Below, in pieces: positions 10,475 through 50,591 of a DNA stretch of 51,109 nt. The DNA is taken from positions 1 to 51,109 of the forward strand of contig DAIUBI010000001.1 of assembly GCA_036846745.1 (NCBI GenBank), read 5' to 3'. Each line of letters opens with the position of its first letter. Position 1 is the first letter of the stretch. This DNA comes from Saprospiraceae bacterium. GTDB taxonomy: Bacteria > Bacteroidota > Bacteroidia > Chitinophagales > Saprospiraceae. Both the position numbers and the translations under genes were made by a program. A model generated the notes under the pieces. The model did not search any database. It saw only the letters and a program-made list of their open reading frames with translations, and was not told the DNA's origin.

Positions 10475-10508
10475 TTCCAATTTCTAACCATTCATTTTGA
10501 CAAATATC

Positions 10509-26862: not shown

Positions 26863-27001
26863 AAACAGCCTCTTTTAAACCAAAATGTCCAGTACTAAGC
26901 AAAACAGCAAATCTGGTGGAGCAGGATTCTTTTTGTCCATATTTTACTTCATGCCTTTTAGGTCGGATTGCCCATTTGAACATATATTATCTTTGCTCCG
27001 G

Positions 27002-29763: not shown

Positions 29764-29990
29764 CATATACAAAGGTGGCCCAGATTACCCTGTGGGTGCC
29801 AGCGTGAAATGACGTGTTTTCTTCAATCAGGTATTTTTACGGGGGGCAAGGCAGACTTTAGACCTCATATTTGCTGGAGAATTTAACTATTTAGAGTCAA
29901 TTCTGGCAAAATGACTTCATTCATTAGTCGTCTATTGTTTCAGCCGATTGAAGATTGATACCTTTACCCCTTCTTTTACTCCACTTGGAT

Positions 29991-30764: not shown

Positions 30765-30777
30765 CTGAGTAAAACAA

Positions 30778-31449: not shown

Positions 31450-31482
31450 AAAATCCCCCGATGATCTTCCAATCATCGGGGG
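31445..31482 (-). terminator. Strong intrinsic terminator closing the giant-protein operon (it may also stop the convergent LuxR-type regulator gene)
   Basis: There is a perfect 11-bp stem, CCCCCGATGAT (31455-31465) pairing with ATCATCGGGGG (31472-31482), with a 6-nt loop. On the minus strand it is followed by ATTTTTTATTTT. It sits 30 nt after the stop of the 2,468-aa gene. Confidence 0.75.
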
Positions 31483-31511: not shown

Positions 31512-34500
31512 TTAATGCTGTATCAATAATCGTTTAACGGAACGTAGCGGGGCTGAGGTACATTCGAGTAAATAAAGCCCGGAAGGTACTTTTCGTACAT
31601 CGAGATACATACTATTTCTGCCTTTTAAGCCAGTTCGATGTTCTTCCAGAATTAACCGTCCCGTTATATCGTGGATATTTAATCGGAACATTTGTTCATC
31701 CGGAAGTTCAAAGTCTACCCACAGTGCGCCTGATGTCGGATTGGGATAAACATTCAGCTGAAGGGCGTCAGACTCACTGTTTGTTACGTTAACAATGCTA
31801 TCTTCTTCATCTCTTACCGGACTATTCTGATTTACCGTTACTACCGAAACGCAGGTTGCTGTATTGCCGCTCCAGTCGCTTACGGTTATGACCAGATTAT
31901 AAATGCCTGCCGAATTGTAAGTTTTGGCTGCAGGGAGGTACCCGGTTACAGAGCAGTTGTCAAAACTTGAATCTGCCAGTATGGATGGATAAACGGTGAC
32001 GTTGCCGTTGGAACCCAGGGTTACAACAGTATTCTTACATATCGGAGTTGGAGCAATGTTGTCTTTCACTGTAACCAATGCTGAGCAGGTTGAGGTGTTC
32101 CCGGAGGGGTCTTTTACCGTCAGCAAATTATTTACAGGAGCGCCAATATCACTGCAGTTGTAATCCGTTTGCAACAGAGATCTGGTACTAATGCTGCAGT
32201 TGTCGGTACTGCCATTGTCCAAATCAATTGCGTTTATGCTTTTCTTACCCACGTCATTCAGGAAAATCGTAATGTTTTTACACAATGCGGTTGGAGCAGT
32301 TACGTCTCTAACAGTTACCCTTGCAGTGCAGGTTCTGGTATTGCCTCCGGCATCGGTTACTGTCAATGTTACCACATTTACGCCCAGTTGATTACAGTTG
32401 AAGGTATTGGGCGCAAGGCTAAGTGTAAAACTACAGTTATCACTGCTGCCATTGTTAATGGCACTTGGAGCTACCGTTACGGTGCCATTCGCGCCCAGAT
32501 TAGCAATGGTATTTTTGCACAGTGCAACCGGCAGAATCAAATCCCGAACTGTAACAATAGCTGTGCAGGATCCAGCATTATTGCTCTGATCGCGACCGGA
32601 AAGCGTAACCGTGTTGTCGCCAATATCAGCACAAGTGAACTGGGTTTTGCTAAGGTTAAAGACTACAATAGTACAATTGTCAAAACTTCCATTGTTCACA
32701 TCTGCAACGGTAAGTGTAGCCTGACCCTGGGCATTCAGATTTAATGTTGCATTTCGGCACAACATGGTTGGCGGGATGTTGTCTATCACTGTAACCGTTG
32801 CCTGACAGGTCGCGGTGTTGCCACTCTGGTCTGTACCGGTTAGCGTTACCGTATTTGCCCCTAAATTACTACAAGTAAAGAAGTTGGGTGTAAGGGAGAG
32901 GTTGGTCAATGTACAGTTGTCAGTACTTCCGTTGTTGATATCAGCGGTAGATACGGAAGCTGAACCGGCAGCATTCAAGGCCACCGTATGATTTTTACAC
33001 ATCATAGTGGGTGGAATCTGATCAACAACCGTTACTGTCGCATTACAGGAGGAGGTATTGCCATTGCCATCATTAACCGTTAGTACCACCACATTTGCCC
33101 CTAACTGACTGCAATTAAAGGTATTCGGTACCACGGAAACCAAATTGACAACACCACAATTGTCTGATCCGCTTCCATACACGTCACTTGGCAAAACCGT
33201 CACCATCCCTGCGGCATTCAAGGCCGCTGTGAATGGCTTACACACAACTACCGGTGGAGTAACATCTTTAAGGGTTACCGTAAACGTGCAGAATTGGGTG
33301 TTTCCGTTGCCGTCATCAGCTGTAAGCGTTACCACCTCCACATCATTGTGACCGCTCAATACGGTACTTGCCGCCGGGCTTTGTGTCACCGTAGGATTAG
33401 GATTACAGTTATCGCTAACAGAAACCGCTGAGTAAGCGCCCAACAAACTGCTGCAGTTGGCGTCTGCATTCAAGGTTACATTTGGCGGACAAGTAATAGT
33501 AGGCTTCGTAACATCTTTCAATGTAACGGTCAGGCTACATGAAGCCGTATTACCATTTCCATCGTTGGCTGTAAGTGTAACCACCTCAAAGTCATTGTGT
33601 CCGATCAATACCGTACCTGGTACCGGACTTTGTGTAACAGTAGGATTGGCGTTACAATTATCGCTGACAGATACCGGATTGCGTACGCCAACCAAGCCAG
33701 AGCAATTGGCATCCGCATTTACTGTTGCATCCGGTGGACAAACGATAGAAGGTGGGGTAACATCCTTCAGGGTTACGGTAAAACTACAACTGTTCGAGTT
33801 TCCATTGCCATCGTTAGCCGTAAGCGTAACGGTTTCTACATCGTTGTGTCCGGTTAACACCGTGTTTGCTGCCGGACTTTGGGTAACGGTTGGGTTTGGA
33901 TTGCAGTTATCACTCAAGGAAACCGGCGACCAGGATCCTACTACATTGGAACAATTGGCGTCTGCTGCAAGTGTTGTGTTTGCCGGGCAAATGATGCTTG
34001 GTGGGGTAACATCTTTTAAGGTTACCACAAAAGAACAGGACTCTGTATTTCCATTCCCGTCGTCGGCTGTAAGTGTTACCGTTTCCGTATCATTATGACC
34101 GCTCAACACGGTGGTTGAAGCGGGACTTTGGGTAACGGTTGGGTTGGCATTGCAATTGTCGCTCACCGAAACCGGATTGTAAGTGCCTAACAAGCTGCTG
34201 CAATTAGCGTCAGCGTTAAGGGTTTGAGGTCCAGGGCAAGTGATAGTGGGTTTGGTTACATCCTTCAGGGTCACCGTGAAATTACAAGTATTGGTATTCC
34301 CATTGCCATCGTCGGCCGTAAGTGTAACTGTTTCTACATCATTGTGTCCACTTAACACAGTACCTGCTGCCGGGCTTTGGCTGAAGCTTGGATTGGCAGC
34401 GCAGTTGTCGGCAAGTTGAGTGGGCATATAGCTGCCAAGACTGCCGTTGCAATTCGCGTCCGCTTCAATGGTAGTATTACCCGGGCAGATAATAGTGGGC

Positions 34501-37500
34501 GGGGTCACGTCTTTAAGTGTAACGGTAAAAGAGCAATCGCTGGAATTGCCGTTGCCATCATTAGCGGTTAAGGTCACCGTTTCTACGTCATTGTGGCCGC
34601 TCAGCGCAGTTGAAGCCAACGGACTTTGGGTAAAGCTTGGATTGACAGCGCAATTATCGCTTAATGAAGCGGGCGACCAGGAGCCCACAACCCCGTTACA
34701 GTTGGCGTCTGCCGCCACAGTCTGGTTGGGTGGACAACTCAGCAACGGAGGGGTAACATCTTTTAAGGTAAGGGTAAAGTTGCAGGAACTATTGTTACCA
34801 TTGCCATCGTTGGCCGTAAGTGTGATGGTTTCCACATCGTTATGGCCACTCAAAATAGTATTTGCTGCCGGCGTTTGAGTCACTGACGGAGAAGGATTGC
34901 AATTATCACTTACCGACAAGGGAGCCCAGGTGCCCACCTGTCCGCTGCACTGGCCATCTGCGGCCAGAGTTGTATTGGCCGGACAGGTAATAGTTGGAGG
35001 AATGGCATCCGCTACAGATGCTGTTACTGTGGCCGAGTTGACACATCCGTTATCATTAACGGTTACGGAATACGTGCCGCTTGCCGCCGGGGTGGCATTC
35101 GGGATAGTTGGGTTAACAGCGCCTGATGTAAAATTATTAGGCCCAACCCATGAATAGGTTACACCACTGCCACTGGGGCCACCTGAATTCAATTGCAGGG
35201 TAGCGCCGGGGCAAACCGGACTATTGGTTGTAGGTGCAAGTGCCGGACCAAATACGCTTACATTGACCGAAGCAGTTCCTTTGCAATTCTTGGTATCTGT
35301 AACGGTTACCGTATAGATACCTGCGCCGTTCAGGAATACAATAAATGGAGTTGGGTCTTCCATATTAGAAGAATATCCGTTAGGGCCTGACCAGGAGAAT
35401 GCATTATATGGAGGTGATCCAGCATTTGGGGTTGAAGTCAGGACCAATTGATTTCCTGCACAAATCGGACTATTGCTGGCAGCTGAAATGGTTGGAGCAT
35501 TATTGGTTGAAATCGACAAGGTGGTTGAAGATGTTCCGGTGCACCCGGCATTGTCCGTTACTGTAACGGTGTAGGTGCCTGCATGAACCAATGCAATGTT
35601 GTTAATCTTTGGATTCTCTAAGCCAGAAGAAAAACTATTTGGTCCTGCCCAGTTGAAACTGGTATAGTTTCCGGATCCGCCGGATGGATTTGTTTTCAAA
35701 TCCAGGGTTGCACCCAGGCATAGCGGGCCGTTATTGGTGGCCAAGGCAATTGGTTTTGGGTTTACTACCAGGTTAGTAGTGGCAGTAGCGGTGCAGCCTT
35801 TTGAATCGGTCACTTTTACGGTATAAATGCCCGAGGAAGCCACGGTGCCGGTAAATGGAGCAGGATCTTCGGCGGAAGCACCAAAGAAGTCGGGGCCTGT
35901 CCAGCTAAAGGTGTAACCAGGAGTGCCTCCGGAAGGGGAGGAAGTTAACACTACCTGAGCGCCAGAGCAGATAGGGCCGTTATTCTGTGCGGTGATGGAT
36001 GGATTCGGATGAATGGTAACAGAAACACTGGCTGTTGATACACAACCCAATGCATCTGTAACACTCACGGTATAAGTACCCGCAGCCTGCATATTAGCTA
36101 CAAATGGCGCCGGATCTTCTACATTGGCACTATAGTTATTCGGGCCTGCCCACGCAAAAGCAGTATAAGGTAACGCGCCGCCAATTGGAGCAGAGGTAAG
36201 GGTAATCGTTCCGCCATCACAAACTGCTCCGCTTACACTTGCCGTAATCGTTGGACATGCTACCACTGAGACGCTGGTGGTTGCAGTGCTGGTACAACCA
36301 TTGCCATCTGTAAGTGTAACGCTGTAAACGCCGGCTGCTGCCATAGTGGCCGGAAAGCCTGCAGGTTGTGCATCACTAGAACTGTAGCTGTTTGGGCCAG
36401 ACCATACATAGGTGTAGCCAGATCCAGACCCGCCACTTGCAGTTGAACTCAATTGAATGGTTCCTCCCTCACTCACCGGGCTATTGCTTGAAGCGGTGAT
36501 TATTGGAAGGGCATGAACAGTTACCGAGGTGGTATTGGAACCGCTACATCCGGCATTGTCCGTTACGGTAACCGAATAGGTTCCTGCAGCAGCCAGGGTG
36601 GCAATAAATGGCGCCGGGTTTTGACTGGTGGAGCCAAATCTGTTCGGACCAGCCCAAAGGAAAGTGTATCCCTGGCCAGATCCACCGGTTGGGGTACTGT
36701 TCAACGTCAGGTTAGCGCCGGAACAAACAGGACTGTTACTTCCTGCGGTGATGGTAGGCGCCGGGTTGGAGGAAACACTAATGCTGACCGTGCCTGAAGC
36801 AGTACAGCCAGGGGTATCTGTTACTACTACGGTGTAAGTCCCGCCAGAGTTGGCTGTTGCCGGAAAAGCTGTTGGATCTTCCAGATTGGATTGGTAATTA
36901 TCTGGTCCGGTCCAGGAAAAACTTGCATAAGGCGGGGTTCCTCCTGTTGGCGTGGAGTTCAGGGTAATGTTGGAGCCCAGGCATACTACCCCTATATTAC
37001 CGCTGGCGCTAATGGTTGGCGGTGGAGCTATAACTATACTTGCCGTGGCGGTGCAGGAACCCGTGCTGGTTCCGGTTACGGTGTAAGTACCCGGAGTGGT
37101 TACTGTGATTTGGGGTTGCGTAGATCCGGTACTCCAAACATAGCTTACAGCGCCGGAGGCAGTCAGGTTTACGCTTGCATTGGTACAAATCAGATTGGTG
37201 CCTCCATTGATACTTACGGCAAATGGTTCATTGGCCTGATTAGTCACCGTGACAACCAAAGTGATCACATCCGACTGATTTCCTGCATTGGTAACCTTAA
37301 TGTTTACCACATATTGGTTGTTGACATCGGCATCCTGAGGGTTCTCAAAGTCCGGAGAAAAACCTGCAGCCCAACTCAGCACACCATTTTGGGTATTGAT
37401 ACTGAATTTACCTGCGTCAGCGCCACCATCCAGGGCATAAGTGAGGCCGTTACCTTCGCTGTTGTTAGGGTCGGATGTTTGGGTATCATACAGTACATAA

Positions 37501-38918: not shown

Positions 38919-38937
38919 TGTTGTTAAGTTTAAGGTC

Positions 38938-41900
38938 TTATTGCAAAACAATTTTCTTCACGACACTTCCCGATTCTGTTTGTAGCCGAACAAAGTACAC
39001 GCCTTTTGCCAGCGCTGCGCCTTGTTCAGACTGTGCCTTCCAGGAAAGGGAGTTGATACCCTCTTTGCCTGAGGTATTGATTTCAGCCACTTGTTTACCG
39101 CTCATGTCTGTAACGGTAATGCGCAAGTCCTGACTTTTTAGCAACGCAAATCGTAAAGTAGTTTCCTGCTGGAACGGATTGGGTTGCACATCAAAAGATT
39201 GGACAGCCGAGATTTCCTCGGTGCCGCTGCTCAGTAATGTGAAGGGCAACGGAGCATCTATGCTTCCCTGATGCCATTCGGGCGAGAAGAACATGACTTC
39301 CTTGAGTTCCTGAATACCGCCGGTGCTGCTGTCAAACAATTGATAGCGGATCTGCTCCCCGGCTGAGTTGGCATATACCGTAAGGAAGAACAGATAAGAT
39401 TGCAGAGGTGGAATATAAATGGCTGTGGAAGAGCCCCGTACCTGAGCGTTGGCAAATGCGCCAAGTTCCATGGTAGCAGTCGTTGCATTTTGCTCATTCA
39501 CCTTCAACATACCTATCAGCGTCATGCTATGCTCAAACTGCGTCGGATCTACGGTCCAGAAGTTTTGACCGGGTGCTTCACCTGGCCCCCGGTCTCCGCT
39601 TCCAGGTTTGCCTTTATAATCAGCTCCTCCATTCGTTAATTGGCTGGACAATGGAGGATAGATCAATGTGCCAGGTGCAGAAACCTTCAGTTGATATCCA
39701 TTTGGTGGACTCATGTACCCCAGGTTTCCGATCCAGCCAAATGTTGGGTTGATATATTGAGCAAAAGAAATTTGGCTCTTAATCAAATCACCTGTTTGGG
39801 CAGATACAGACGACAAGGCTTCATTTACCGGAAGTGAGTAGTTTGGAATATAGCTGATCCAGTTCCAGCCTGGTACCACTTGTATAGGTGTATTTGCCGG
39901 ATCCAGAACACTTCCCTGCATCATAAGGGTATCAGCGATATTAGCCCTGTAGACATACATGGATGTGTTTCCAAGGTTTTGCAGTGTGCCCAACCAGCCG
40001 CCACCATTAAAATAGGTAGAGAACTGGTTTTGACTCTTCATCAAATCGTTCTGCGGATGACTTAAAGATGCCAGGGCCTCATTGATGTCTGAGTCAGGGA
40101 AACCGAGGTTGAAGGAAAGCCAGTTCCATCCAAAGCCGAGAGGCACTTCCCGAAGTACTAAGTTGAAGGTGTGAATCACCTGTGGGTTCAATGGATCGCC
40201 TATAACATCATCCGGTTGGAATAAGAAATCATCCTCCAATACAGCATAACGAAGACAGGCAGATGCGTCCCAGATTTCTAACCGAATTGGTTGTAGCACA
40301 TGGTTCGGATTGCCGTAAATGGTCAGGTATGCTAAGTATTTATTCACCTGAGGTACATACTGAACATTGGCCCGACCTACTAAGGTGTCGCCGATGAAAG
40401 CTACTACCATGTCTTCCACATCGGTAGAAACCTCACCCTCAATATTCAGTTCGAGCACCAAATTTTCGGTGTTTTCATACAGACTGCCATTGATTTCCCA
40501 GGCTGGTGGCCGACAAACAACGCGTACGCCGAACGGAAGACGTTCGTCTCCACCCATAAAGAATGGATTTTGGCCAATCTCGGTGTGAAGTGTGATGGAA
40601 TCACTCCAAAGTCCAAAGGCCAGGTTAGAATCAACGGTAAAACTGATAGGTCTGATTTCATTTGGGGCCAATGTGCCCTGTGTAGGCACCACGTGCACAT
40701 ACGTAGGTATATCCTCTATGGTAAAGGGTACCGGATACCCGCCGCGATTATGGATGCTGGCCGTTATGGTTTTGGTTTGATCTTCATATTTAGTCATACC
40801 AATACTGTCGGTCAGCCAGGCCAGCTCATTGCGGTCTACATAAAATTCCCACTGTTCATAGACCAGCTTGTTGCCGGTTTTATCCTCAATATCATGCAGT
40901 TCTGCGCGCAGGATACGATTTTCGAAGAATTTATTCTGGAAGGTAGGATCCAGAATAATCTTGTTTTCGTAACACGTAATGTTGATGTCCAGTAGCTGGT
41001 TGGTGGTAGCGTCGAACAATTGAACATTGTCAACCGCATTGATTTTAGCGCAGTTGATGGCTTTGTTGAAGGAGAAGGAGATCTCGTCGCCCACGTTGTA
41101 TACACCATCAGCTGGCTCCGGCACGCCAATCAGACTTGGCGGCTGACGTTCAATGCGACCAGTGATGATGTGAGATATGCCAGGTTTGTCTAAAAGATCT
41201 CCTGTACATACCGCGATTGCCCGAATTTCATAAGGCCCGTCAGCGAGGCCTACAGTATTCCAGAAGAATTGGGTAAAAACAGAGCCTAAGTTAGTCTTCA
41301 GTATCTCCGCTCCTGGTTGTATCAAATTAATCAGGGAGTCATCCGGTGGTACGATATTAATCCAGGCTCCATCGCCGTCGGAAGGCCGGTATTGAACCCT
41401 GATTTTTTCAAATTCCTGCACAGATTTATCATACCCTGAGACGGTGATACGCATAACGTCATCAGGCCCCTGGGTGATCGGATCAGGGAATATTACCCAG
41501 TTTTGTTGAGGTGCATTGATGTCTACCTCACTGCAGGGCTTAATGAAATGTGCGCTCAGATAAACACTGGAATAGGCAATCGTATCTGCGCTCGACTGTA
41601 ATCCCAGTAATCCTGCCCGATCATCTTCGCACTCGCTGTAAAAGGCAATTTCCAGACTGTCGTAGTCGTATTTTTCCGGACCCCGTTCTATCGTAAGGGT
41701 AATGGGCACAGAGGTTCCGTATTCAATCTGATATCCAATCGGGCCATCCAGTACTGCACCATTAAGCCTGATCACAGCTCCATCAGGATTACTATTTACC
41801 CCGGCGTTTATTACGTAGGTTCGGGTTTCATTGGTTTCACTTTGATTACCAAGTACCAGTTTGTAAACGGCAGCATCATTGGATGGGATATCCACTGCAA

Positions 41901-44900
41901 CCGGTCCACTTCCATCTCTGAAGGTAATGCCTGTGCCGTCACGGTGAGCTGTATTGGGCTCCCACGGACAACTGGACTGACCTGTTACGGTGTTAAATAC
42001 CGGAGTATTATAAATGGTATCCATGGCAACATCCACTGTAAAGGCGTCGCCAGGGTCATTATCAGAAAGGACATATCCGGTGGTAATACCTTGGGAGGTT
42101 CCATTTTCGGTAGTCTTGCTGGTGGTTTTGCTTGTGCCAGTATTAATGGTTACACCCCCGCCGGCACCCTGAATAAAAATTTGAATATCAAATGCGAAAT
42201 TGAAATCGCTGGTATTTTCCACTGAAGTGATGCTGGTAGCACTGGTGTCGCTGGTTTCGGAGTATTCATAAGAAACTCCAGATTCAAAGGACACATTTCG
42301 CAAAAATTTGGCCGACTCCTTTTGTTGCTCATTGTTGGCCAAAATAGCATTCCAAAGGTTTATGGAATTGAGACAGGTGTCTCGTTTTTCCGGTGTAGTA
42401 TTCGGATCATCAGCAATGGCCTGAAGGTACTTGATGGTATAGTTTCGGATGTAGTTATCCGAATACATATAGGTGGTACCAAAGTTTTTAGGCGCCACAG
42501 AAATAACGGTTTCTACCGCGCCACCACAAAGCAAGGTGTCGAAACTTACTTTATCAGAGAACCCAAACTCAACATTCAGGCCTGATCCAACGAATACATC
42601 TCCACCCTGTACAATACCTTGCCCCGGAACATTCACTGCAGGCCCAACAATGTTTTCTTCAGCACTGGTGGAAATGGTTTCACTAAAGCTGCTGCAAACC
42701 TGCAAGCTGTTCTCTGAGGACTTTGTGACCGTATTGGAAGTGGTAATGGTTGGGCCGATATTGAATTCGGTGGTCAAAACGATCCCAAAGACCAAAAATT
42801 CAAAATCTGGCACAAAGTCGATAACCACATCAAGGCCGTTCGTTTCTGATGTGTCTCCTGCAAAGGATACGGTTTGGCAAACGCTCTGGTTTTTTTCAAA
42901 ATAAGCATAGCTGCCGTCGCCTGGCGGATCGCGAAGTACCAGCGAAGGCGTAGCAGGGAGTTGTGTGGTAAAGGTGCTGGATTTGGAGAACAGGCCCGTC
43001 ACCAATGCCTGCCGAATCTCCGTAGATTCGTTTCCGCTGATGGAGGAGCCTACAATTTGGATGGTTTGCAGGAATGGCGGGCTTGGATTGGGCACCTTTG
43101 CTCTGAATTTGTAAAAAAGAATGGAACTGCTCAGAACAGTATCCTTTACCTCACCTGAAATTTCATTGATGATGCGAATATTGCCGGTATCCAATAAACA
43201 GGCTTCGCCGAGATAATATTCTTTTAAGGAAATCCCCAGGGTGTAAGACTTGCCTTGTTCAAATACCACAGTCTGGCAAGTTGGACTGTATGGATCCATG
43301 CCACTTACGATTTCCACCTGTGGTGGTGCGTAGTAAATAAAGTCAACAATGGTGTCGACTTTTCTCAAATCTACCTGCTTACCGCCTAAAACCTGAAAAG
43401 CCGTTTTAATGGTTGGGTCTGAGTGTTCCACCACCGCAATGGTCATTTCAATGGGCGGGAGATTGGCAAATTCATATTCGCCTTCTATATTGTCAATTTC
43501 AATGATGCGTTCAAAGCAATCATCAATCGAGCGAACTTTTACGATACACACCGTACCACTTGGCGTTCCCGGATTACTGATAATGGGTAATTTACAATCA
43601 CCTCCGGCTACAAAACCACTGATTTTCCTGGTGGTAATGTCATTAAATACAATTCCCGCAATTGGGCTGGTGAGGTTGGTTACCTGCCAGGTAGCCGGGA
43701 AAAATTCATGGTCTTCAAAGACCGGCTTCAGGGTAACGGTAGCTCCAGGCTCCAGGTCAATGATGAATTTGCCGGTGGAGTCGGTAAAAATCCGTGGAAC
43801 AAACGATTCATTATTGACCAGGATTTCAACATTTTTGGCGAAACAATCCGTATTTTGGTATCGCACAAATCCTGTAACCGGAATGGTAGACCGATCTGTA
43901 AAATCTACCTGGTCAACTGAAGTGACACTGGGATTTAAGGTTACCTGTCGGGTAGAAGGCGCAAACTCATGAGGCGTTGTAGATTGGTTAGGCGCCATAG
44001 TCGTCCATTCCGTTTGGAAGGTGGTTCCCTGTTGAGTTAGCAGTAAGGACCCCGAGTTGGTAAGCACGGATCCTGTCCCCTCATCCATGGCAAAATATAT
44101 ACGCAGCCCTGCTTCCTGTGGATCTCTGGAGGCAGCGGCATGAGCTGAAATGAGCGCGGGAGTTAGGATGTTACCATATACTGCCACCTCGTCAATCAGC
44201 CCACCATAAAAATCAACGAAATCAGTGCCTGATTTCCTCGCACCCAGTACCCAGGGTTCTGCAGGCTCTTCCCAGGTTCCGGTGTAGGCCGGCATCATAA
44301 CGGTTCCCAGCAGGGTGCCATTCTTATAGCCTGTTACCTGTGTGCCGGCTCCTGTGCTATCAATGGTGAAAGCCAAGTGGTGATACCCAAGCCCTAATGG
44401 CCCGAAATCATGTACCTGGTTGTTCAGCTTGAAGATAATATGGTTATTTATACCATTTGCCTGCAGTTGAAGCTGAAAACTGTTGCTTCCGTTCCATCTT
44501 TTGGATAATACCGTTTGGATACCGTCAGGGCCGGCGCTATTAATCCAGGTTTCCAGTGTTGTTTGTGATGTTAAGGGAAAATCTGGCAGCGTGGCATAGT
44601 CCATCTCCTGCCGGTTGAATTTAAGGGCGCGGTGCTTGTAGAAGAACTTTTCCGGCTTTGCCAGGAAAGTAATGCCGGTGCCATAGTTGGCAGATTCAAT
44701 TCTGTAATAGCCATCCTCGTTTGTTTTGCCTGAGGTGCGAACCGGAGGCCGGTCAGCATCGAAAATGGCGCCGCAAAAGAAGAACCGATTGCGCTGCAAG
44801 AGGTCAAAGGATTTGGAGCCTTTTTCCTCGTCCATTTTCCAATAGTATTTTAATCCCGGTGTAAGGGTGGAAGCGGTGCCCTCCATCACCTCTGCCAGAT

Positions 44901-45999
44901 CCAGCTCATTTAAACTTTTGTGGTAAATTCTTAATTCATCCAGTCTGCCAACCCAGGGGGTACTGCCGCTAATGCGTTTGCCTACACGCAGCGAAGTAGT
45001 ATTCAGAATTGCAGTGCCATTTTTTTGATCCTTAAGAACACCATCTAAATATAACCGATAAGCGCCGGAGCTATAACTGAGGCTAATGTGGTGCCATCCA
45101 TTTGGATTTGCATCAAAACTGCCGGTGAGATTGGCCGTTCCAGCCAACATCTGCACGCCACCGCTGTTCAGAGATTTGACTACCAATCCTTGATTCACTC
45201 CATTGGGCGTAATATCCAACATCGTCGGATTGTTTAAAGCCTCTGTGTTTTTGATCCAGTAGCACAGGGTCCAATCTGTATCTGTGGTAGGCAGAAAATT
45301 TTCGTTGGTAGATGAATCCGGCTCGGCATAGGCTCCGTCATGGGGGCCAAAGTAAGCCGAAAAGCCCTGCATGGGCATGAGCGTAACGAGGGCATCCGGC
45401 ACCGGACTATCATTTATGGTACGCACCCATCCCGTTACTACACCGTTTGGAACCTGAAACCCTAGTGCTTTACCAGGAGATCCTTCACCATAGGCATTTA
45501 TTCCTCTCACTTCGTATAGATAGGGTCGTCCTGCAATCACATTAAAATCGTTGTAATTGCGGGTACTCTTGTCTACCTGTGCGAGATAAACCCCGTCGCG
45601 GTATATTTTGAACCCTCCGACAGCGAAAGGGCCAAGTGGATTTGGCCCCCAGGAAATCTGGATGCGATCCAGCAATTCTCCCTGACTGGCGGTTACAAAA
45701 GGAGGGAAAGGCGCCACCAGAAAGCCTGACCAATAGCCAAACTCCATATTGTAATCATCTCCCAAAGCAGAACCCACCACCAATTGTCCAACGGTGAGTT
45801 TCATGCGACGGCTGGTGTTTTTCATCCGTACTCCATTGCCGTAATTAATGAAGGCGGAACGTACCATAGTGTCCTGAACGGCTGCCGAAAAACACCCGGG
45901 ATCCCATGGCTGGCTGGGTTGCTGGGCCCATATCCCTTCCAGGCCAAAGGAAAGACACATCAGTACGGCGAATAGCCGACTAAAAAATATATGTTTCAT
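38938..45999 (-). CDS. Giant (2,353 aa) T9SS cargo protein: FN3-like domain, two LamG/ConA-like domains, large unassigned core, two copies of the module shared with the downstream giant, type-A C-terminal sorting domain
   Basis: The signal peptide is MKHIFFSRLFAVLMCLSFGLEGIWAQ. An FN3-like segment is present (IQISWGPNP...FKIYRDG...YLYEVRGINAYGEG). LamG signatures are WHHISLSYSSGAYRLYLDG...GRLDELRIYHKSL (about 44900-45330) and HHLAFTID...GYKNGTL...GGLIDEVAVYGNIL (about 44150-44600). The CTD is FDVQPNPFQQETTLRF...KGVYFVRLQTESGSVVKKIVLQ. Confidence 0.9.
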   Translation of the reverse strand: MKHIFFSRLFAVLMCLSFGLEGIWAQQPSQPWDPGCFSAAVQDTMVRSAFINYGNGVRMKNTSRRMKLTVGQLVVGSALGDDYNMEFGYWSGFLVAPFPPFVTASQGELLDRIQISWGPNPLGPFAVGGFKIYRDGVYLAQVDKSTRNYNDFNVIAGRPYLYEVRGINAYGEGSPGKALGFQVPNGVVTGWVRTINDSPVPDALVTLMPMQGFSAYFGPHDGAYAEPDSSTNENFLPTTDTDWTLCYWIKNTEALNNPTMLDITPNGVNQGLVVKSLNSGGVQMLAGTANLTGSFDANPNGWHHISLSYSSGAYRLYLDGVLKDQKNGTAILNTTSLRVGKRISGSTPWVGRLDELRIYHKSLNELDLAEVMEGTASTLTPGLKYYWKMDEEKGSKSFDLLQRNRFFFCGAIFDADRPPVRTSGKTNEDGYYRIESANYGTGITFLAKPEKFFYKHRALKFNRQEMDYATLPDFPLTSQTTLETWINSAGPDGIQTVLSKRWNGSNSFQLQLQANGINNHIIFKLNNQVHDFGPLGLGYHHLAFTIDSTGAGTQVTGYKNGTLLGTVMMPAYTGTWEEPAEPWVLGARKSGTDFVDFYGGLIDEVAVYGNILTPALISAHAAASRDPQEAGLRIYFAMDEGTGSVLTNSGSLLLTQQGTTFQTEWTTMAPNQSTTPHEFAPSTRQVTLNPSVTSVDQVDFTDRSTIPVTGFVRYQNTDCFAKNVEILVNNESFVPRIFTDSTGKFIIDLEPGATVTLKPVFEDHEFFPATWQVTNLTSPIAGIVFNDITTRKISGFVAGGDCKLPIISNPGTPSGTVCIVKVRSIDDCFERIIEIDNIEGEYEFANLPPIEMTIAVVEHSDPTIKTAFQVLGGKQVDLRKVDTIVDFIYYAPPQVEIVSGMDPYSPTCQTVVFEQGKSYTLGISLKEYYLGEACLLDTGNIRIINEISGEVKDTVLSSSILFYKFRAKVPNPSPPFLQTIQIVGSSISGNESTEIRQALVTGLFSKSSTFTTQLPATPSLVLRDPPGDGSYAYFEKNQSVCQTVSFAGDTSETNGLDVVIDFVPDFEFLVFGIVLTTEFNIGPTITTSNTVTKSSENSLQVCSSFSETISTSAEENIVGPAVNVPGQGIVQGGDVFVGSGLNVEFGFSDKVSFDTLLCGGAVETVISVAPKNFGTTYMYSDNYIRNYTIKYLQAIADDPNTTPEKRDTCLNSINLWNAILANNEQQKESAKFLRNVSFESGVSYEYSETSDTSATSITSVENTSDFNFAFDIQIFIQGAGGGVTINTGTSKTTSKTTENGTSQGITTGYVLSDNDPGDAFTVDVAMDTIYNTPVFNTVTGQSSCPWEPNTAHRDGTGITFRDGSGPVAVDIPSNDAAVYKLVLGNQSETNETRTYVINAGVNSNPDGAVIRLNGAVLDGPIGYQIEYGTSVPITLTIERGPEKYDYDSLEIAFYSECEDDRAGLLGLQSSADTIAYSSVYLSAHFIKPCSEVDINAPQQNWVIFPDPITQGPDDVMRITVSGYDKSVQEFEKIRVQYRPSDGDGAWINIVPPDDSLINLIQPGAEILKTNLGSVFTQFFWNTVGLADGPYEIRAIAVCTGDLLDKPGISHIITGRIERQPPSLIGVPEPADGVYNVGDEISFSFNKAINCAKINAVDNVQLFDATTNQLLDINITCYENKIILDPTFQNKFFENRILRAELHDIEDKTGNKLVYEQWEFYVDRNELAWLTDSIGMTKYEDQTKTITASIHNRGGYPVPFTIEDIPTYVHVVPTQGTLAPNEIRPISFTVDSNLAFGLWSDSITLHTEIGQNPFFMGGDERLPFGVRVVCRPPAWEINGSLYENTENLVLELNIEGEVSTDVEDMVVAFIGDTLVGRANVQYVPQVNKYLAYLTIYGNPNHVLQPIRLEIWDASACLRYAVLEDDFLFQPDDVIGDPLNPQVIHTFNLVLREVPLGFGWNWLSFNLGFPDSDINEALASLSHPQNDLMKSQNQFSTYFNGGGWLGTLQNLGNTSMYVYRANIADTLMMQGSVLDPANTPIQVVPGWNWISYIPNYSLPVNEALSSVSAQTGDLIKSQISFAQYINPTFGWIGNLGYMSPPNGYQLKVSAPGTLIYPPLSSQLTNGGADYKGKPGSGDRGPGEAPGQNFWTVDPTQFEHSMTLIGMLKVNEQNATTATMELGAFANAQVRGSSTAIYIPPLQSYLFFLTVYANSAGEQIRYQLFDSSTGGIQELKEVMFFSPEWHQGSIDAPLPFTLLSSGTEEISAVQSFDVQPNPFQQETTLRFALLKSQDLRITVTDMSGKQVAEINTSGKEGINSLSWKAQSEQGAALAKGVYFVRLQTESGSVVKKIVLQ

Positions 46000-46053
46000 G
46001 AAAAGAGTCGTTGAGTGAATGGAAGGTTTGACAAACGGGAATGATCAATGGCC

Positions 46054-47631
46054 CTATTTCCCGGTACTCGAGGACTCTAATGCCTGAATTCGTCTTAACA
46101 GATTTTCCAATTGACCGGAAAAAGCGTTTTGTTGCTTGCTCAAATCAGCATTGGCAGTTTGCAAACTGCTGTTTTGAGCTTTCAATCCGTTGTTTTCAGC
46201 TTGTAGAGCAGCAATTTCTGCCTTCATTTTTTCAATTTCCAATTCATGATCTTTCACTACCTCATTAAGGTAAATGGAAACTTTTTTATAGTTAACCCCC
46301 GTGATTTCGCCACTTCCATTGTAGTGTACCAATCTGGTCAGACCTATACTGTCGAACTCTTCAGCAATGTAACCAAGCTCTACACGCTCATCAGGATAGC
46401 CAATACGATTGTATAATTTCGGTTGAGCCTTTAAGATTAGCCTGTAGTTGTCGGTAAGCGGATTAATGTTGCGTTTGAGGCGGCGACTGGAGTTGTCGAC
46501 TTGCAAGTGTCCTGTTTGTTCATCCCATTCTACTTCAGGATTGTCCGGACCTTTTTGAATGCCATAAAGTTTAATAGCAGAAAGAGTATTGCAACATTGA
46601 TTGGTATATCCTTGTGGAGGAGAGAATTCTGCTACAACTGAACCGTTAGATCTGATTTGCACAATACCGTCCTGCTTTCCAAATAATCCCGAATCAGTAT
46701 CGTCAATGCCACCTTGCAGCGTATAATTGAAGGTAAAACCAGAATTGTCGAACCAGCTCGCAGCCCTGTTAAATCCTTTGGTAAAGGAGCTGCCGTTGAC
46801 AGTCTGATTGGCCCCGATGGTAGAAAATCCGGTAACTTCCTGATTAGCATTAATTTTTGAAAACCCATTGACAGTATGCCAACCCTGTACGGTTTGGTGT
46901 AATGAAATGTTAGAGCTGCCGTTTATCTGCTGGTTGCCATTTATCGTTAAATCATTGCTGATAAACGGGCCAAAGTTGACTGTTTGACCATAAAGTTCAT
47001 TCTGAGCGTTGTTTAATTGCATTCTTTCTTGTCCGCCAGCCCACAATTCAATGTTATTTGCCCCTCTGGAGAACATGCCCCCTCCTTCATCACCACCTGG
47101 TTTAAATGAAAACCCATTTCCGTCTGGTCCCTGGCCACCGATGGGGTCGCCGCCTCTTGCCCGAAAAGCATCACCAATAACCGGTCCTGTGCTCGGGAAA
47201 GTATTGTTCTGGCCAACCAATCCCAATGCATATGGTGCATGGGTAAGACGCGGACGTGGAAGTAGCTCAATGGAGGAAGTGCCTACACTTACCCCAAGCC
47301 AATATGTTTTGTTAAAAGCAGCATTAAGTGGCTGTGTATCATCAAGCCCCAGTACCACACTGTAGACCCCGCCTACAACGGTAATGTTCTCAATAAGCTC
47401 CTGGTGTACCTTATGTATATTGTCTGTGCTGGATGCATCATCCCACAAACGAAAGGTGAGTTTATAATCATTCCCATCATCTACAGCTGTGCCGTCTGAT
47501 TTGGTTAATACTCCCTGTACAGAGAGCGTTGCTTTGTTGGCCTGTGCAAAAGCTACAGAGGCTGTTCCCAGCAAGGCAAATAGGAGAAGAAAATGCTTTA
47601 GGCTGATAAAGGAGTAAAAAACGCTTTTCAT
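46054..47631 (-). CDS. Secreted tail-fibre-like protein with C-terminal intramolecular-chaperone auto-processing (Peptidase S74-type) domain and terminal coiled coil
   Basis: The signal peptide is MKSVFYSFISLKHFLLLFALLGTASVAFAQ. The central part has degenerate N/Q/G-rich short repeats. The C-terminal 145 aa (46057-46491) read SSRRLKRNINPL...ELGYIAEEFDSIGLTRLV...GVNYKKVSIYLNEVVKDHELEIEKMKAEIAALQAEN. That matches the S/D-x-R-x-K-x-N-I ... GFIAQE ... V.Y..L pattern of tail-spike/endosialidase chaperone domains. Confidence 0.82.
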   Translation of the reverse strand: MKSVFYSFISLKHFLLLFALLGTASVAFAQANKATLSVQGVLTKSDGTAVDDGNDYKLTFRLWDDASSTDNIHKVHQELIENITVVGGVYSVVLGLDDTQPLNAAFNKTYWLGVSVGTSSIELLPRPRLTHAPYALGLVGQNNTFPSTGPVIGDAFRARGGDPIGGQGPDGNGFSFKPGGDEGGGMFSRGANNIELWAGGQERMQLNNAQNELYGQTVNFGPFISNDLTINGNQQINGSSNISLHQTVQGWHTVNGFSKINANQEVTGFSTIGANQTVNGSSFTKGFNRAASWFDNSGFTFNYTLQGGIDDTDSGLFGKQDGIVQIRSNGSVVAEFSPPQGYTNQCCNTLSAIKLYGIQKGPDNPEVEWDEQTGHLQVDNSSRRLKRNINPLTDNYRLILKAQPKLYNRIGYPDERVELGYIAEEFDSIGLTRLVHYNGSGEITGVNYKKVSIYLNEVVKDHELEIEKMKAEIAALQAENNGLKAQNSSLQTANADLSKQQNAFSGQLENLLRRIQALESSSTGK

Positions 47632-47794
47632 GATGTGAGGAAATTAATTTGTGCAATGAAATAACCTGCCCAACGCACCAGGCGTCAGGGTTTACGGGAT
47701 GCCAGCAAGGTAAGCAGGATATACTAAGAAAGTTGTAATGGAATCAGGGAAGCACAAGTTTTTACCAGTAAGGCCCTTTAAAATTTCAGGGAAG

Positions 47795-48157
47795 CTAATG
47801 GCCTCTTACTTCAAACCAATGTCCCAGGTGATCTTTAAGTTGTACACGTGTAAATGGCTTATTCAAAACCGGGAAGGAAAATGCCTTGTTTACAGGGGGG
47901 GCAGCGGCTCCCGTGATGAAAAAAACCGGGATGCAGAAGGTGTTTTGAAGTTGTGCGCCAAAGGCCCAGCCATCCCAGCCAGTCGGGCTTTTGACGTTCA
48001 TAATCAAGCCTTTAGGACTTTTTTTCAGACATAGCTCTGTTAGCTGATCCATTTATGTTACATCAATAACTTCCATATGCAGTTATTCCAGATGCCATCG
48101 TACATCCAGCGCTATGACCGGATCATCTTCTGCCAGTAATACAACAGGGCGCAACAT
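47795..48157 (-). pseudogene. Stand-alone CheY-like receiver (REC) gene interrupted by two in-frame TAA codons
   Basis: My codon-by-codon reverse-complement translation from ATG 48157 (preceded by GGAGGTGAA) gives MLRPVVLLAEDDPVIALDVRWHLE*LHMEVIDVT*MDQLTELCLKKSPKGLIMNVKSPTGWDGW...IPVFFITGAAAP...NKPFTRVQL. This is a full-length 118-residue REC in a single frame. The stop codons lie at 48083-48085 and 48053-48055. The track shows only the last 85 codons (47795-48052). Confidence 0.75.
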
Positions 48158-48267
48158 TTCACCTCCAAAATGCTCTATATGGGTGGGATCAGGAATGAAA
48201 TATCAGTGAAAAGGTGTTTTTTTACAGTGGAGGTATGTTATAAACCAGTTTGCGAACCTTAGCTGCG

Positions 48268-49854
48268 TTAATGGAGAGCCAAATCAAACAAGATCTCCGT
48301 GGCATATCCATTTTCATCAGCCTTCACTTCCACCTTTCCTTTCCATTTATTGCTGAGCATTTTGATAAGTCTGGAGCCAAATCCGGTGCCAGTGTTTGGT
48401 GTCCCGGACGTTCCTACACCATTGTCGGATACCCGAAGGTACAATTTCCTGTTTTCGGTTTTATGCAGCTCAATGTTGATTTGCCCTTTTCGCCCGCCAG
48501 GAAACGCGTATTTCAAAGAATTGGCAAGTAATTCGTTGACAATCAGGCCAATAGGTATGGCTGTGTCAACATCCAACTCCAACTTGTTTTGGGGATAACG
48601 TATTTCCACGCTGCCATCATCTAAGCCAAATGAATCAAGCATGGTTCGCCCAAACTGTTCAAGGTAATCTTTCATTTCCACCTGTGCCACGTTGGCGCCC
48701 AGGTACAGTTTCTGGTGGATCAAGCCCATGGCATCCACCCGGTTTTGACCCTCCCGGATGGCGTCTAGCGCTGCGTCATCCTTAACCTGGCGGGATTGCA
48801 GATGCAGAAGACTGGAGAGTATTTGCAGGTTATTTTTTACCCTGTGGTGTACTTCTTTAATCAAAAACTCTTTTTCCCTATTGCGCTTTTTCAGGCTTCT
48901 GACCAGGATAAATAACACCACGCCAACAGCCAGCGCAAATGCCAATCCTCCCAGTAATAATTGTTGTTTCAAGTGTTCTGTTTCCAGTTGTTTTGCCTGA
49001 GTAGCTATTTGGGTTTCTTTTTTCTCGTTTTCATACTGTGCCTTCAAAGCTTCTACCTCCTGTAGTCTTTCCTTGGCCATGAGGGTGTCCTGATAGTATT
49101 CCATGTAGCTCCATAATGCAGCATAGGATTTTTCGTGATTGCCCAAAGCAGCTTCAATCATGGCTCTGTATTTGAGCGCCGCGGAATACTCTAAAGATCT
49201 GCCGTGTTTTTGAGATAATGCAATAACAATATCGTTGTGAAACCTGGCTTTTGATGGATTATCGAGGTACAGGTAATTGCCTGTCAGGTAGATATTGGCG
49301 GTTAGATAGGCAAAGTCATCCTTCTTGTTCAACGCAGCCTGATAATAATCCAGATAGTAACGATTTGCGCCTTGATAATCGCCTTTCACCTCCACTACGT
49401 TTCCAATTTTCGCCATGGCATTTGCGGCACCCATGGTATCCCTGATTGCCAAATAAGTGGCAACTGCGGTTTTTAGTATTTGAATGGACGTGTCCAGTTG
49501 ATTTTCTTTAATGAAATATATCCCTTTTCGGAATAAGATCCTGGCTACGTTTAGTGTGTCCTGGCAGGCACGGCAAAGTTTTTCACCTTTTTCAATAGAG
49601 ATAGCAAGTGCTGGCTGATTTTCTGTTACAATGGCAAGCTTACTCAACAACATTTGAACTTTGCATTGCAATTCCAGATTATTCTCCTGTTCAGCTAATT
49701 TTTGTGCCTGAACGAGATGATAAACTGCACTGTCCCAATTTCCTCTTTCTACATATTTATAACCATTATTGTATGATTCTTTCAAGTCGTCAGACTGTGC
49801 AAATCCATTACCGGAGATCAAGATGCAGATGAAAACAAAAAGAAGGTGTTTCAT
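48268..49854 (-). CDS. TPR-repeat sensor histidine kinase (signal peptide, extracytoplasmic TPRs, coiled coil, one TM, HisKA_2 + HATPase_c)
   Basis: The signal peptide is MKHLLFVFICILISGNGFAQ. Multiple TPR-like helices follow, then a TM segment (LLLGGLAFALAVGVVLFILV). The H-box is EVHHRVKNNLQILSSLLHLQ (HisKA_2 type). The ATPase motifs are NELLANSLKYAF, SDNGVG and GFGSRLI. Confidence 0.9.
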   Translation of the reverse strand: MKHLLFVFICILISGNGFAQSDDLKESYNNGYKYVERGNWDSAVYHLVQAQKLAEQENNLELQCKVQMLLSKLAIVTENQPALAISIEKGEKLCRACQDTLNVARILFRKGIYFIKENQLDTSIQILKTAVATYLAIRDTMGAANAMAKIGNVVEVKGDYQGANRYYLDYYQAALNKKDDFAYLTANIYLTGNYLYLDNPSKARFHNDIVIALSQKHGRSLEYSAALKYRAMIEAALGNHEKSYAALWSYMEYYQDTLMAKERLQEVEALKAQYENEKKETQIATQAKQLETEHLKQQLLLGGLAFALAVGVVLFILVRSLKKRNREKEFLIKEVHHRVKNNLQILSSLLHLQSRQVKDDAALDAIREGQNRVDAMGLIHQKLYLGANVAQVEMKDYLEQFGRTMLDSFGLDDGSVEIRYPQNKLELDVDTAIPIGLIVNELLANSLKYAFPGGRKGQINIELHKTENRKLYLRVSDNGVGTSGTPNTGTGFGSRLIKMLSNKWKGKVEVKADENGYATEILFDLALH

Positions 49855-50591
49855 ATTTTTATGAGCCAGGCTGTTAGCTCCTCTTTTGCCGATTTACTGA
49901 TGGGAATTTGTTTTTTATGGATTACCACAAAGAGGTCGCCAATTTCTTCTATGTGGTTGCTGTTGACAATATATGACCTGTGTATCCTCAAAAAGCCGGG
50001 AACCACTGCCAACGTTTCTCCCAATTGTTTTAAGGTTTGTGTGATGAGATACTCTTTATCGAGGGTAATTAATCTGCAGTAGTAATCATCTGCTTCGATC
50101 CAGAGGATATCTGCCAGAAAAATCCGGATCATCCGGTCTTTGAATTTGATGAAAACTCTGTCGCCGAACCAATTGCTTGAACCTATTTCTACTTTTGTTT
50201 CAGGAATATCAGGTTCGGGCTCACTTCTGGAAATCGCCAGTTCAATACTATGCTGCAGATCTTTTCCACGGAAGGGCTTCGTCAGGAAAGCTGCAGGGTG
50301 AGTTTTTTTTGCCCTTGCAAAGGTCAGCGGATCAGCGTTGCTGGTTAGAAATACCAGGGGAACCGACCTGATCTCCTGTATTTTATACGCAGTTTCCACG
50401 CCATCCATTTGGCCAGACAACTGAATGTCCATCAGAACAATATCCACATTGTTCATACTGAACCACTCCACAGCCTCTTCTCCATAACTGAAAGGTCCGG
50501 CGGTTTCATAGCCCATTTCATGGAGCCGATCCTCCAAATCAGCTGCAATGATAGGCTCGTCTTCTATGATTAAAACAGATATTTTTTTCAC
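49851..50591 (-). CDS. LytR/AlgR (LytTR) family response regulator
   Basis: The REC domain reads ISVLIIEDEP, phospho-acceptor in IVLMDIQLSG, LVFLTS and LTKPF. The C-terminal LytTR domain reads IFIKFKDRMIRIFLADILWIEADDYYCRLIT...FLRIHRSYIVN. Its TGA overlaps the kinase ATG (ATGA, 49851-49854). Confidence 0.92.
   Translation of the reverse strand: MKKISVLIIEDEPIIAADLEDRLHEMGYETAGPFSYGEEAVEWFSMNNVDIVLMDIQLSGQMDGVETAYKIQEIRSVPLVFLTSNADPLTFARAKKTHPAAFLTKPFRGKDLQHSIELAISRSEPEPDIPETKVEIGSSNWFGDRVFIKFKDRMIRIFLADILWIEADDYYCRLITLDKEYLITQTLKQLGETLAVVPGFLRIHRSYIVNSNHIEEIGDLFVVIHKKQIPISKSAKEELTAWLIKI

Follow-up and report, generated by a model that had tools for sequence, protein, structure and literature searches.

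Organization of the cassette

We analyzed a 51,109-nt stretch of contig DAIUBI010000001.1 (assembly GCA_036846745.1), referred to below as the window, which derives from a metagenome-assembled genome (MAG) of the Saprospirales. Its minus strand carries a cassette of six co-directional genes (five intact genes and one receiver pseudogene), in which a LytTR-type two-component system precedes the genes of a fibre-like protein and of two giant proteins predicted to be T9SS (type IX secretion system) cargo. A previous reading, made from the sequence alone, had claimed seven genes; our count is six. The genes and associated elements, in the order of transcription, are as follows:

49851-50591, minus strand: LytTR-family response regulator of 246 aa with a GTG start (Pfam Response_reg, 72.6 bits; LytTR, 69.8 bits)
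48268-49854, minus strand: sensor histidine kinase of 528 aa (Pfam HisKA_2, 89.7 bits; HATPase_c, 36.3 bits; weak TPR_12)
48204-48231, minus strand: direct-repeat pair resembling LytTR boxes, 5' of the receiver pseudogene (TCCACTG ... TTCACTG, 21-bp period)
47795-48157, minus strand: pseudogene of a single-domain, aspartate-less receiver with two in-frame TAA stops (intact relatives have 120-131 aa and match PF00072)
47745-47793, minus strand: three direct repeats with 21-bp phasing, putative sites of the LytTR regulator (the same array is found in relatives)
47706-47713, minus strand: position of the Bacteroidota-type −7 promoter box, 38 bp after the start of the last repeat
47669-47689, minus strand: stem-loop followed by a T-rich tract in the 5' untranslated region (UTR) of the fibre gene, found by sequence scan (relatives have similarly placed hairpins)
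46054-47631, minus strand: precursor of a MAT-like, putatively trimeric fibre of 525 aa, with Peptidase_S74 and a coiled coil
38938-45999, minus strand: LamG giant of 2,353 aa, with two Laminin_G_3 domains and Por_Secre_tail (predicted T9SS type-A cargo)
31512-38918 (open reading frame, ORF, to 38951), minus strand: HYR/cadherin/PKD giant (HYR giant) of ~2,468 aa from ATG 38918 (predicted T9SS type-A cargo)
31455-31482, minus strand: strong intrinsic terminator at the end of the cassette (12-bp stem with 7 G-C pairs, T-run)

The regulator and kinase genes are joined by a 4-nt ATGA overlap and the intergenic gaps along the cassette are 110, 163, 54 and 19 nt, exactly as the sequence-only reading had given them. 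The 19-nt gap between the LamG and HYR genes presumes that the latter starts at ATG 38918, which is favoured because a normal signal peptide results. The terminator scan identified the element at 31455-31482 as the sole strong terminator of the cassette, in agreement with the previous reading, with the weaker hairpin and T-tract of the fibre 5' UTR in addition. Since a plus-strand ORF encoding a membrane protein diverges from ~50683, upstream of the regulator gene, the cassette begins at the regulator. A sigma-70 promoter scan was uninformative (29 sites vs. 30.4 expected), its consensus type being wrong for Bacteroidota.

Conservation of the cassette in related genomes

Related loci were collected in three ways: five looked-up contigs (L001-L005), 56 loci found with one genome per GTDB species (L006-L061), and two loci reached from the LamG giant (L062 and L063). 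In L001-L005, whose fibres share 75, 56, 43, 42 and 36% identity with that of the window, the regulator, the TPR kinase, the single receiver, the fibre, the LamG giant and a HYR-type giant occur in the same order (the contig carrying the 56%-identical fibre homologue ends inside the kinase gene). All of the 56 genome-scan loci come from Saprospiraceae, Lewinellaceae or unclassified Bacteroidota MAGs. Among the related loci, L002, L004 and L032 belong to Danish WWTP MAGs, obtained from activated sludge.

Wherever the fibre matches over its conserved N-terminal domain (N-domain; L001-L039, ~37 distinct loci), a LamG giant is encoded directly downstream, sharing 51-77% identity over ~2,350 aa with the giant of the window, vs. 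32-75% for the fibre. The loci matching the S74 part of the fibre alone (L040-L061) contain no LamG giant. Approached from the LamG side, L062 and L063 each encode a 510-aa S74 fibre upstream and a HYR protein downstream, so that fibre and LamG genes adjoin in every N-domain locus found, from either side. The gene order is kept across genera, down to 32% fibre identity, and the cassette is specific to the Saprospirales lineage and chromosomal.

The other components are more variable. A HYR-type giant is encoded in third place in ~16 of the 21 loci with enough downstream sequence, and the LytTR two-component system together with the aspartate-less receiver precedes the fibre gene in most loci. 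L062 and L063 use other regulators (a hybrid kinase-AraC protein in one, a TPR-CHAT and sigma factor pair in the other). The synteny of fibre, LamG giant and HYR giant that the sequence-only reading had proposed to look for is thus universal for the first two genes and frequent for the third, while the coupling to a LytTR system that it had described holds for most loci and is not universal. As the pairing of fibre and LamG giant is constant and the HYR giant and the LytTR system vary across the loci, the obligate unit consists of the fibre and the LamG giant, the other components being frequent and replaceable.

Several genomes and contigs carry two or three cassettes. In tandem cassettes, genes of small stand-alone LytTR-domain proteins (~131 aa, without a receiver) lie after a LamG giant gene and before the regulator or fibre gene that follows (L005, 5545-5940; L037, 9362-9709; L038, 9171-9539).

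The fibre protein

The fibre of the window shows 100% identity to a protein from a Saprospirales MAG. An alignment of 50 homologues distinguished five parts of the fibre, which are given below with their mean pairwise identities (as fractions) and with the positions of the putative catalytic residues:

aa 1-30, minus strand: Sec signal peptide (0.33)
aa 31-155 (47167-47541), minus strand: conserved beta-rich N-domain (0.59)
aa 156-375, minus strand: hypervariable middle of variable length (0.23)
aa 376-447, minus strand: S74 intramolecular chaperone (0.54)
aa 448-525, minus strand: coiled coil (0.43)
46489-46491, minus strand: Ser381, with Lys386 at 46474-46476

Peptidase_S74 (PF13884) matches aa 381-431 with 27.5 bits, above the 22-bit cut-off. 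Ser381, Arg383 and Lys386 are invariant in all 50 sequences, and the spacing of the catalytic pair fits the pattern S-D-x-x-x-K, the second position being Ser, not Asp, in the class to which the window fibre belongs. The family profile matches the chaperone region of phage S16 gp37 (6f45; E = 1.2e-5), SSRRxK being aligned with SSDRRIK. An AlphaFold2 (AF2) monomer model (pLDDT 77.6) predicts a beta-sandwich N-domain (strands within aa 36-116) and a long C-terminal helix, and has 145 matches to viral tail-fibre/S74 proteins in BFVD. Against the PDB, Foldseek gave no match to this model below 1e-3; the extended shape of the modelled monomer accounts for the weakness of the match to 3gw6, an endosialidase chaperone. 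Matches of the fibre to ZapB, GpsB, TolA-binding and similar proteins were rejected as coiled-coil noise.

The N-domain points to a different set of relatives. The mosaic adhesive trimer (MAT) fibres of Bdellovibrio bacteriovorus have a ~130-aa beta-rich domain after the signal peptide, chimeric tips, and S74 (SDxxxK) as well as non-S74 subgroups (Caulton et al. 2024, PMC10769870). The corresponding model, NF053851 (Bdello_MAT_N), is matched by 47 of the 50 family members, with a best E-value of 1.2e-5 and all matches below the 60-bit cut-off; for the window fibre the match has E = 2e-3 and 18 bits, likewise below the cut-off. Judged by these profile matches and by its domain order, the fibre can be regarded as a distant relative of the Bdellovibrio MAT fibres. 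Three distal classes were found on one and the same N-domain: (i) SSRRxK, represented in the window, (ii) SDRRIK with a larger chaperone, and (iii) non-S74 tips. All three adjoin a LamG giant. The second class was missed by a narrow S74 hidden Markov model and was recognized by its motif and by Pfam instead. The third is exemplified by L030 (227-1543) and L039 (9866-11101), which have the same N-domain and non-S74 ends, in parallel to the non-S74 MATs of Bdellovibrio; one of these two C-termini resembles, by eye, a DUF1566/Lcl-type lectin domain.

The S74 chaperone and the overall fold, both of which match phage tail fibres, would also fit a prophage or tailocin remnant, that is, a leftover tail-fibre gene among unrelated surface-protein genes. 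We rejected this idea and hold it to be extremely improbable: the fibre begins with a Sec signal peptide, its N-domain is not of phage type, a scan of IMG/VR gave one viral contig, which matches the S74 part alone, the gene order is conserved across genera, and no phage genes were found in the 51-kb window or in the related loci examined.

Scans with Pfam and TIGR04183 revealed no T9SS C-terminal sorting domain (CTD) in the fibre, and no lipobox was found in it.

The giant proteins

Both giants have visible signal peptides, and the sequence-only reading had assigned type-A T9SS sorting domains to both, which is borne out by matches to TIGR04183 (49.2 bits for the LamG giant and 40.0 bits for the HYR giant, vs. 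a cut-off of 23 bits). Further features of the two proteins are:

41500-43047, minus strand: unannotated core of the LamG giant (aa 985-1500; 516 aa)
38941-39183, minus strand: CTD of the LamG giant
38493-38807, minus strand: shared module of the HYR giant, just after the signal peptide (aa 49-153)
31515-31751, minus strand: CTD of the HYR giant (Por_Secre_tail)

The LamG giant consists of a signal peptide, an Fn3-like domain, two LamG domains, CarboxypepD_reg-like sandwiches, the 516-aa core, Big_5/Ig domains and the CTD. It has 340 homologues; among the 120 listed, lengths range from 1,991 to 2,477 aa (mostly 2,320-2,380) and identities are at least 52%. Variable patches lie in the first LamG domain (aa 251-350), aa 1051-1100 and aa 1251-1300. 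The HYR giant contains HYR domains in 9 stretches (192.7 bits) together with cadherin, PKD, Ig_7 and Por_Secre_tail (51.3 bits) domains. The two proteins have in common a module of ~110 aa, already noticed in the sequence-only reading and supported here by 29% identity (E = 1e-8) between aa 49-153 of the HYR giant and aa 2148-2255 of the LamG giant, which holds a second copy at aa 1831-1877.

The core of the LamG giant contains the invariant motifs LRDPPGDGS, DDDPGDAF and GQSSCPWE. It has no Pfam match at E <= 1, its profile found nothing better than E = 0.59 (noise) among PDB sequences, and the whole giant has no match among PDB sequences. The core profile retrieved 2,590 cluster representatives (1,314 at E <= 1e-30) in proteins of up to ~3,800 aa, among which the shorter entries may be fragments. 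Three core-bearing proteins that were sampled are all type-A T9SS cargo, with differing lectin-like heads (LamG, PA14, FG-GAP, fn3). These results suggest that the LamG giant belongs to a large uncharacterized family of T9SS proteins and that its core represents an unnamed domain family.

In the AF2 model of the core (pLDDT 65), very long beta hairpins (strands of 20-34 residues) and two long helices are predicted. Two variable hairpin tips with alternating hydrophobic and polar residues are flanked by Ser/Thr-rich tracts, and the lysenin pore 5ec5 is among the best Foldseek matches (E ~3e-4). Together with the predatory habit of some Saprospirales (10.1101/2024.01.29.577165), these features could be taken to indicate a contact-dependent killing or permeabilizing device, in which the LamG giant would carry an aerolysin/lysenin-like membrane-inserting hairpin module and the fibre would direct it to prey. 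The Foldseek matches in the PDB (CEP192, ciliary proteins, the lysenin pore, fusexin) are, however, low-TM matches only, with TM-scores of 0.10-0.20 (0.10-0.16 for the lysenin pore) and a root-mean-square deviation of ~27 Å, and we treated them as non-diagnostic. Moreover, the pLDDT of the core model falls below 50 in exactly those hairpin tips, and the Pfam and PDB sequence searches of the core lend no support. A killing device is therefore, in our opinion, very unlikely.

Giant, Ig-rich T9SS cargo in the Saprospirales also recalls gliding-motility or grappling-hook filaments related to SprB or to GhpA of Aureispira, the latter likewise being a T9SS substrate, with which prey is caught. Adhesins of the SprB type carry type-B domains. 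Both giants of the cassette match the type-A model TIGR04183, not CHU_C/type-B, and neither the window nor the related loci contain PorP/PorE (ghpB/ghpC)-like or sprC/D/F neighbours; in addition, GhpA is 5,898 aa long, and the LamG giant has no match to any PDB sequence. On the grounds of neighbours and CTD type, GhpA being judged from its published description, we rejected a relationship with GhpA and SprB, and a filament of this kind seems scarcely probable.

Exchange of fibre tips and co-inheritance of the N-domain with the LamG giant

The divergence of each locus from the window was determined region by region, and the regions were compared by Spearman correlation. N-domain identity tracks that of the LamG giant (rho 0.79 for the N-terminal and 0.72 for the C-terminal part of the giant), nearly as closely as the two LamG parts track each other (rho 0.84). 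Neither the middle of the fibre nor its S74/coiled-coil part is correlated with the LamG giant (rho 0-0.19), and the distal parts of the fibre have little relation to their own N-domain (rho 0.27). Individual loci display the same pattern. In L015 and L027, the C-terminal part of the LamG giant is 88% and the N-domain 79% identical to the window, the middle being unrecognizable; in L001 the fibre middle is 81% identical and the N-domain 66%. The decoupled middle in these three loci indicates that an internal block of the fibre gene has been exchanged, the flanks (N-domain and giant) being kept together.

This pattern is the one expected if the N-domain must match the giant, and it suggests, without proving, such a constraint. 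It is also the best support for the putative display of the fibre with or on the giants: the N-domain is inherited together with the LamG giant, and the remainder of the fibre is exchanged. The main rival explanation is co-regulation without a physical complex: the fibre and the giants would be independent adhesins or binding proteins under common control, and the N-domain would bind lipopolysaccharide, an outer-membrane protein or peptidoglycan, not the LamG giant. Synteny and a shared promoter fit this explanation equally well, no LamG giant is implicated for the Bdellovibrio MAT N-domain, and the LamG core occurs in ~2,590 cluster representatives with many architectures. It accounts less readily for an adjacency of 100% in both directions, even where the regulator or the tip has been replaced, and for an N-domain that follows the divergence of the LamG giant when the intervening part of the same gene does not. 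We consider independent adhesins possible but rather unlikely.

Regulatory genes and promoter elements

The receiver domain of the LytTR regulator has the canonical acceptor Asp (LMDIQ). The kinase comprises a signal peptide, ~280 aa of extracytoplasmic TPR, a single transmembrane helix (aa 299-318, by hydropathy), HisKA_2 and HATPase_c. Its TPR sensor (aa 21-300; 48955-49794) diverges faster than the kinase core (24-53% vs. 50-67% identity to relatives), which hints at lineage-specific signals.

The single-domain receiver had been described as broken in the sequence-only reading. The gene of the window is indeed disrupted by its two TAA stops, and because there is no frameshift it is a true pseudogene, not the product of an indel error. 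The loss of the acceptor Asp, however, is a separate matter that is general to the relatives: the acceptor position is occupied by Asn in the window copy and in 22 of 22 aligned relatives, with the Thr and Lys positions kept. The receivers of relatives (e.g., L001, 9439-9828) are intact and match PF00072. With Asn at this position, the receiver cannot serve, in the usual chemical way, as a sink for phosphate.

Upstream of the fibre gene, the repeat units of the window are TTCCCTG at 47793, a degenerate CTTACTG at 47772 and TTCCCTG at 47751. The corresponding regions of relatives have two or three direct repeats with the consensus cTTCCCTGa, and 26 of the 35 repeat spacings are exactly 21 bp. 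TAnnTTTG is the −7 consensus of Bacteroidota, and the last repeat starts 38 bp before such a box, an offset that is constant in at least 12 loci. In the window the box itself is degenerate (TTACCTTG vs. TAnnTTTG in relatives). In a set of ~36 loci, the repeat pairs were almost confined to two places, namely the regions upstream of the fibre gene (30) and of the receiver gene (7); a single one was on the opposite strand. Of the loci that have the LytTR system, 16 of 23 carry the repeats, vs. 0 of 7 loci that lack it, and the window contains two repeat-pair matches (the fibre promoter and the pair at 48204-48231 before the receiver), where 0.31 would be expected by chance. ComE boxes are 9-bp repeats that with a 12-mer linker give a 21-bp period (PMC4005675). 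This identical geometry suggests that the repeats are binding sites of the LytTR regulator. The regulatory coupling put forward in the sequence-only reading thereby gains independent support, from repeats that are phased by 21 bp, lie at a fixed distance from the promoter and are limited to LytTR-bearing loci.

The stem-loop in the fibre 5' UTR lies between the −7 box and the ATG. Hairpins of differing sequence occupy this place in L001, L003, L007, L008, L014, L015 and L022, and may act as an attenuator or as a stabilizing element. Since the receiver is a pseudogene and both the middle repeat and the −7 box are degenerate, the regulatory side of the cassette seems to be eroding in the MAG of the window; the three structural genes are intact.

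A putative switched attachment apparatus

On balance, and with moderate confidence, we favour the reading that the cassette encodes a transcriptionally switched apparatus for attachment at the cell surface. The sequence data establish which genes are present and how they are linked, the catalytic motif, the sorting domains, and the cis element and its association with the regulator. Beyond this we infer that the regulator activates the genes, that they are co-transcribed, and that the fibre cleaves itself, is displayed at the surface and docks on the giant, in the following sequence. The extracytoplasmic TPR kinase would sense an envelope or external cue and phosphorylate the LytTR regulator, which would bind the repeats and activate a single transcript that spans the fibre and LamG genes, and also the HYR gene in cassettes that possess one; the gene of the aspartate-less receiver would be driven by the same regulator. 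The fibre would enter the periplasm via Sec, trimerize from its C-terminal chaperone and coiled coil, and cleave itself at Ser381, whereby the hypervariable part would be exposed and form the distal end that binds ligands. The T9SS would export the giants, which would stay on the surface or be released. Docking of the conserved N-domain on the conserved LamG giant would then provide one constant platform whose tips could be exchanged and would make contact with prey, other cells or particles.

A narrower version of this proposal, possible though doubtful, is that the LamG giant is the surface platform for a MAT-type N-domain: a constant stalk of 2,350 aa delivered by the T9SS and bearing a CTD-less, phage-like trimeric tip that is swapped by recombination. 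As an added possibility, the unannotated core of the giant may insert beta hairpins into a target membrane.

Several points weigh against the attachment apparatus. With neither a sorting domain nor a lipobox in the fibre, its route over the outer membrane is the weakest step of the mechanism. Docking of the fibre on the giant is predicted from co-inheritance and linkage, and the co-inheritance of the N-domain with the LamG giant could reflect recombination breakpoints instead of physical contact; the correlations were computed from identities to one reference, and the loci behind them are related and not independent. Every match to the MAT N-domain model falls under the curated 60-bit cut-off. 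Type-A cargo may be released instead of being anchored at the surface. The LytTR regulator is replaced in some loci (L062 and L063), and the HYR giant is absent from one sub-clade (L011, L019, L025 and L032). The cassette of the window, given its dead receiver and its degenerate box and repeat, may be poorly expressed or mis-regulated, and all carriers are uncultured MAGs.

Each part of the cassette is of a known kind (an S74/MAT-like fibre, type-A T9SS cargo, a LytTR system); the obligate combination, the defined promoter element and the exchange of tips with co-inheritance of N-domain and giant are new. Saprospiraceae and Lewinellaceae are abundant attached or predatory bacteria of activated sludge and fresh water, in which the recognition of partners and prey is largely unexplained beyond the grappling hook of Aureispira. 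The cassette offers a clear and testable design, in which a sensor and a defined promoter element are combined with a recognition fibre that can be exchanged and a giant partner that stays constant; the presence, in some genomes, of multiple copies with different tips suggests a repertoire of specificities. It would also extend the idea of MAT-type chimeric fibres from Bdellovibrio to the Bacteroidota. The strict linkage of fibre and LamG gene yields a concrete candidate for the anchor of a MAT-type fibre; if the proposal is true, the LamG giant would be the first candidate for the "surface element" bound by MAT N-domains, and T9SS cargo would act as a carrier or anchor for a partner without a sorting domain. 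In addition, the analysis draws attention to giant T9SS proteins that form a large family (~2,590 cluster representatives) and have in common a ~500-aa core with no match in Pfam or among solved structures.

Genomic surroundings

The flanks of the cassette are ordinary chromosome, and no T9SS machinery genes are present within the window. The neighbouring genes include:

29955-31449, plus strand: NarL-type pair (HisKA_3 kinase and Response_reg/GerE regulator)
26885-29671, plus strand: S8 subtilase with fn3, GEVED and a weak T9SS type-A tail
13088-19483, minus strand: third giant of 2,131 aa with a proprotein-convertase P-domain, PKD_6 and a CHU_C (type-B) T9SS domain
7265-11984, plus strand: SusC-like TonB-dependent receptor and SusD-like protein

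The NarL-type pair converges on the cassette and shares its terminator (31455-31482); no link of this pair to the cassette was seen in the related loci. The subtilase represents further T9SS cargo near the cassette. The third giant does not contain the LamG core module, and the SusC/SusD pair is an ordinary module of the polysaccharide-utilization type.

Comparison with known systems

Phage fibres and tailspikes (endosialidase K1F, 3gw6; S16 gp37, 6f45; the T5 L-shaped fibre) share with the cassette fibre the S74 domain, the Ser-Lys pair and a C-terminal helical trimerization element. Unlike them, the cassette fibre is encoded by a cellular gene that has no phage neighbours; it carries a Sec signal peptide and lacks a virion-attachment domain.

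The giants resemble T9SS type-A adhesins in having a signal peptide, Por_Secre_tail and Ig/HYR/cadherin/PKD/LamG modules. The LamG giant differs from the usual type-A cargo in its uniform length, its conservation, its unmatched 516-aa core and its obligate pairing with a CTD-less fibre. GhpA, a giant (5,898 aa) T9SS substrate from the Saprospirales with a role in cell contact, is encoded with the PorP/PorE homologues ghpB/ghpC (10.1101/2024.01.29.577165) and, in contrast to the giants of the cassette, has no associated fibre or two-component system; no homology between it and these giants was detected, the comparison being based on the description of GhpA and not on its sequence.

The regulator corresponds to the LytTR activators AgrA, ComE and PlnC/D in its Response_reg and LytTR domains and in the direct repeats, recurring every 21 bp, that immediately precede the promoter. 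It differs from these systems in (i) usually three repeats, not two, (ii) the TTCCCTG core, (iii) the Bacteroidota-type promoter, (iv) a HisKA_2/HWE-like kinase with a periplasmic TPR sensor instead of an AgrC/ComD-type peptide receptor, and (v) the aspartate-less receiver as an extra component.

The sequence-only reading had called the gene combination undescribed, and literature searches likewise found no published description of it; that reading had not recognized the closest described relatives, the MAT fibres of Bdellovibrio (PMC10769870). In both groups of fibres, the signal peptide is directly followed by a conserved beta-rich N-domain of ~125-130 aa, after which come a fibre region and tips that can be exchanged, and an S74 chaperone/protease with S-x4-K is located at the C-terminus. 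Both groups combine S74 and non-S74 tips with one N-domain, and both may occur in several copies per genome. They differ in length (~1,000 aa for MATs vs. ~500 aa for the Saprospirales fibres), in the motif (SDxxxK vs. SSRRxK in the class of the window) and in their hosts (Bdellovibrionota vs. Bacteroidota), the N-domain similarity between them being sub-threshold (at most ~1e-5). In Bdellovibrio, the surface partner of the MAT N-domain is stated to be unknown (PMC10769870). The gene of a Saprospirales fibre always adjoins that of a giant T9SS LamG protein and in most cases follows a LytTR system; neither arrangement has been described for MATs.

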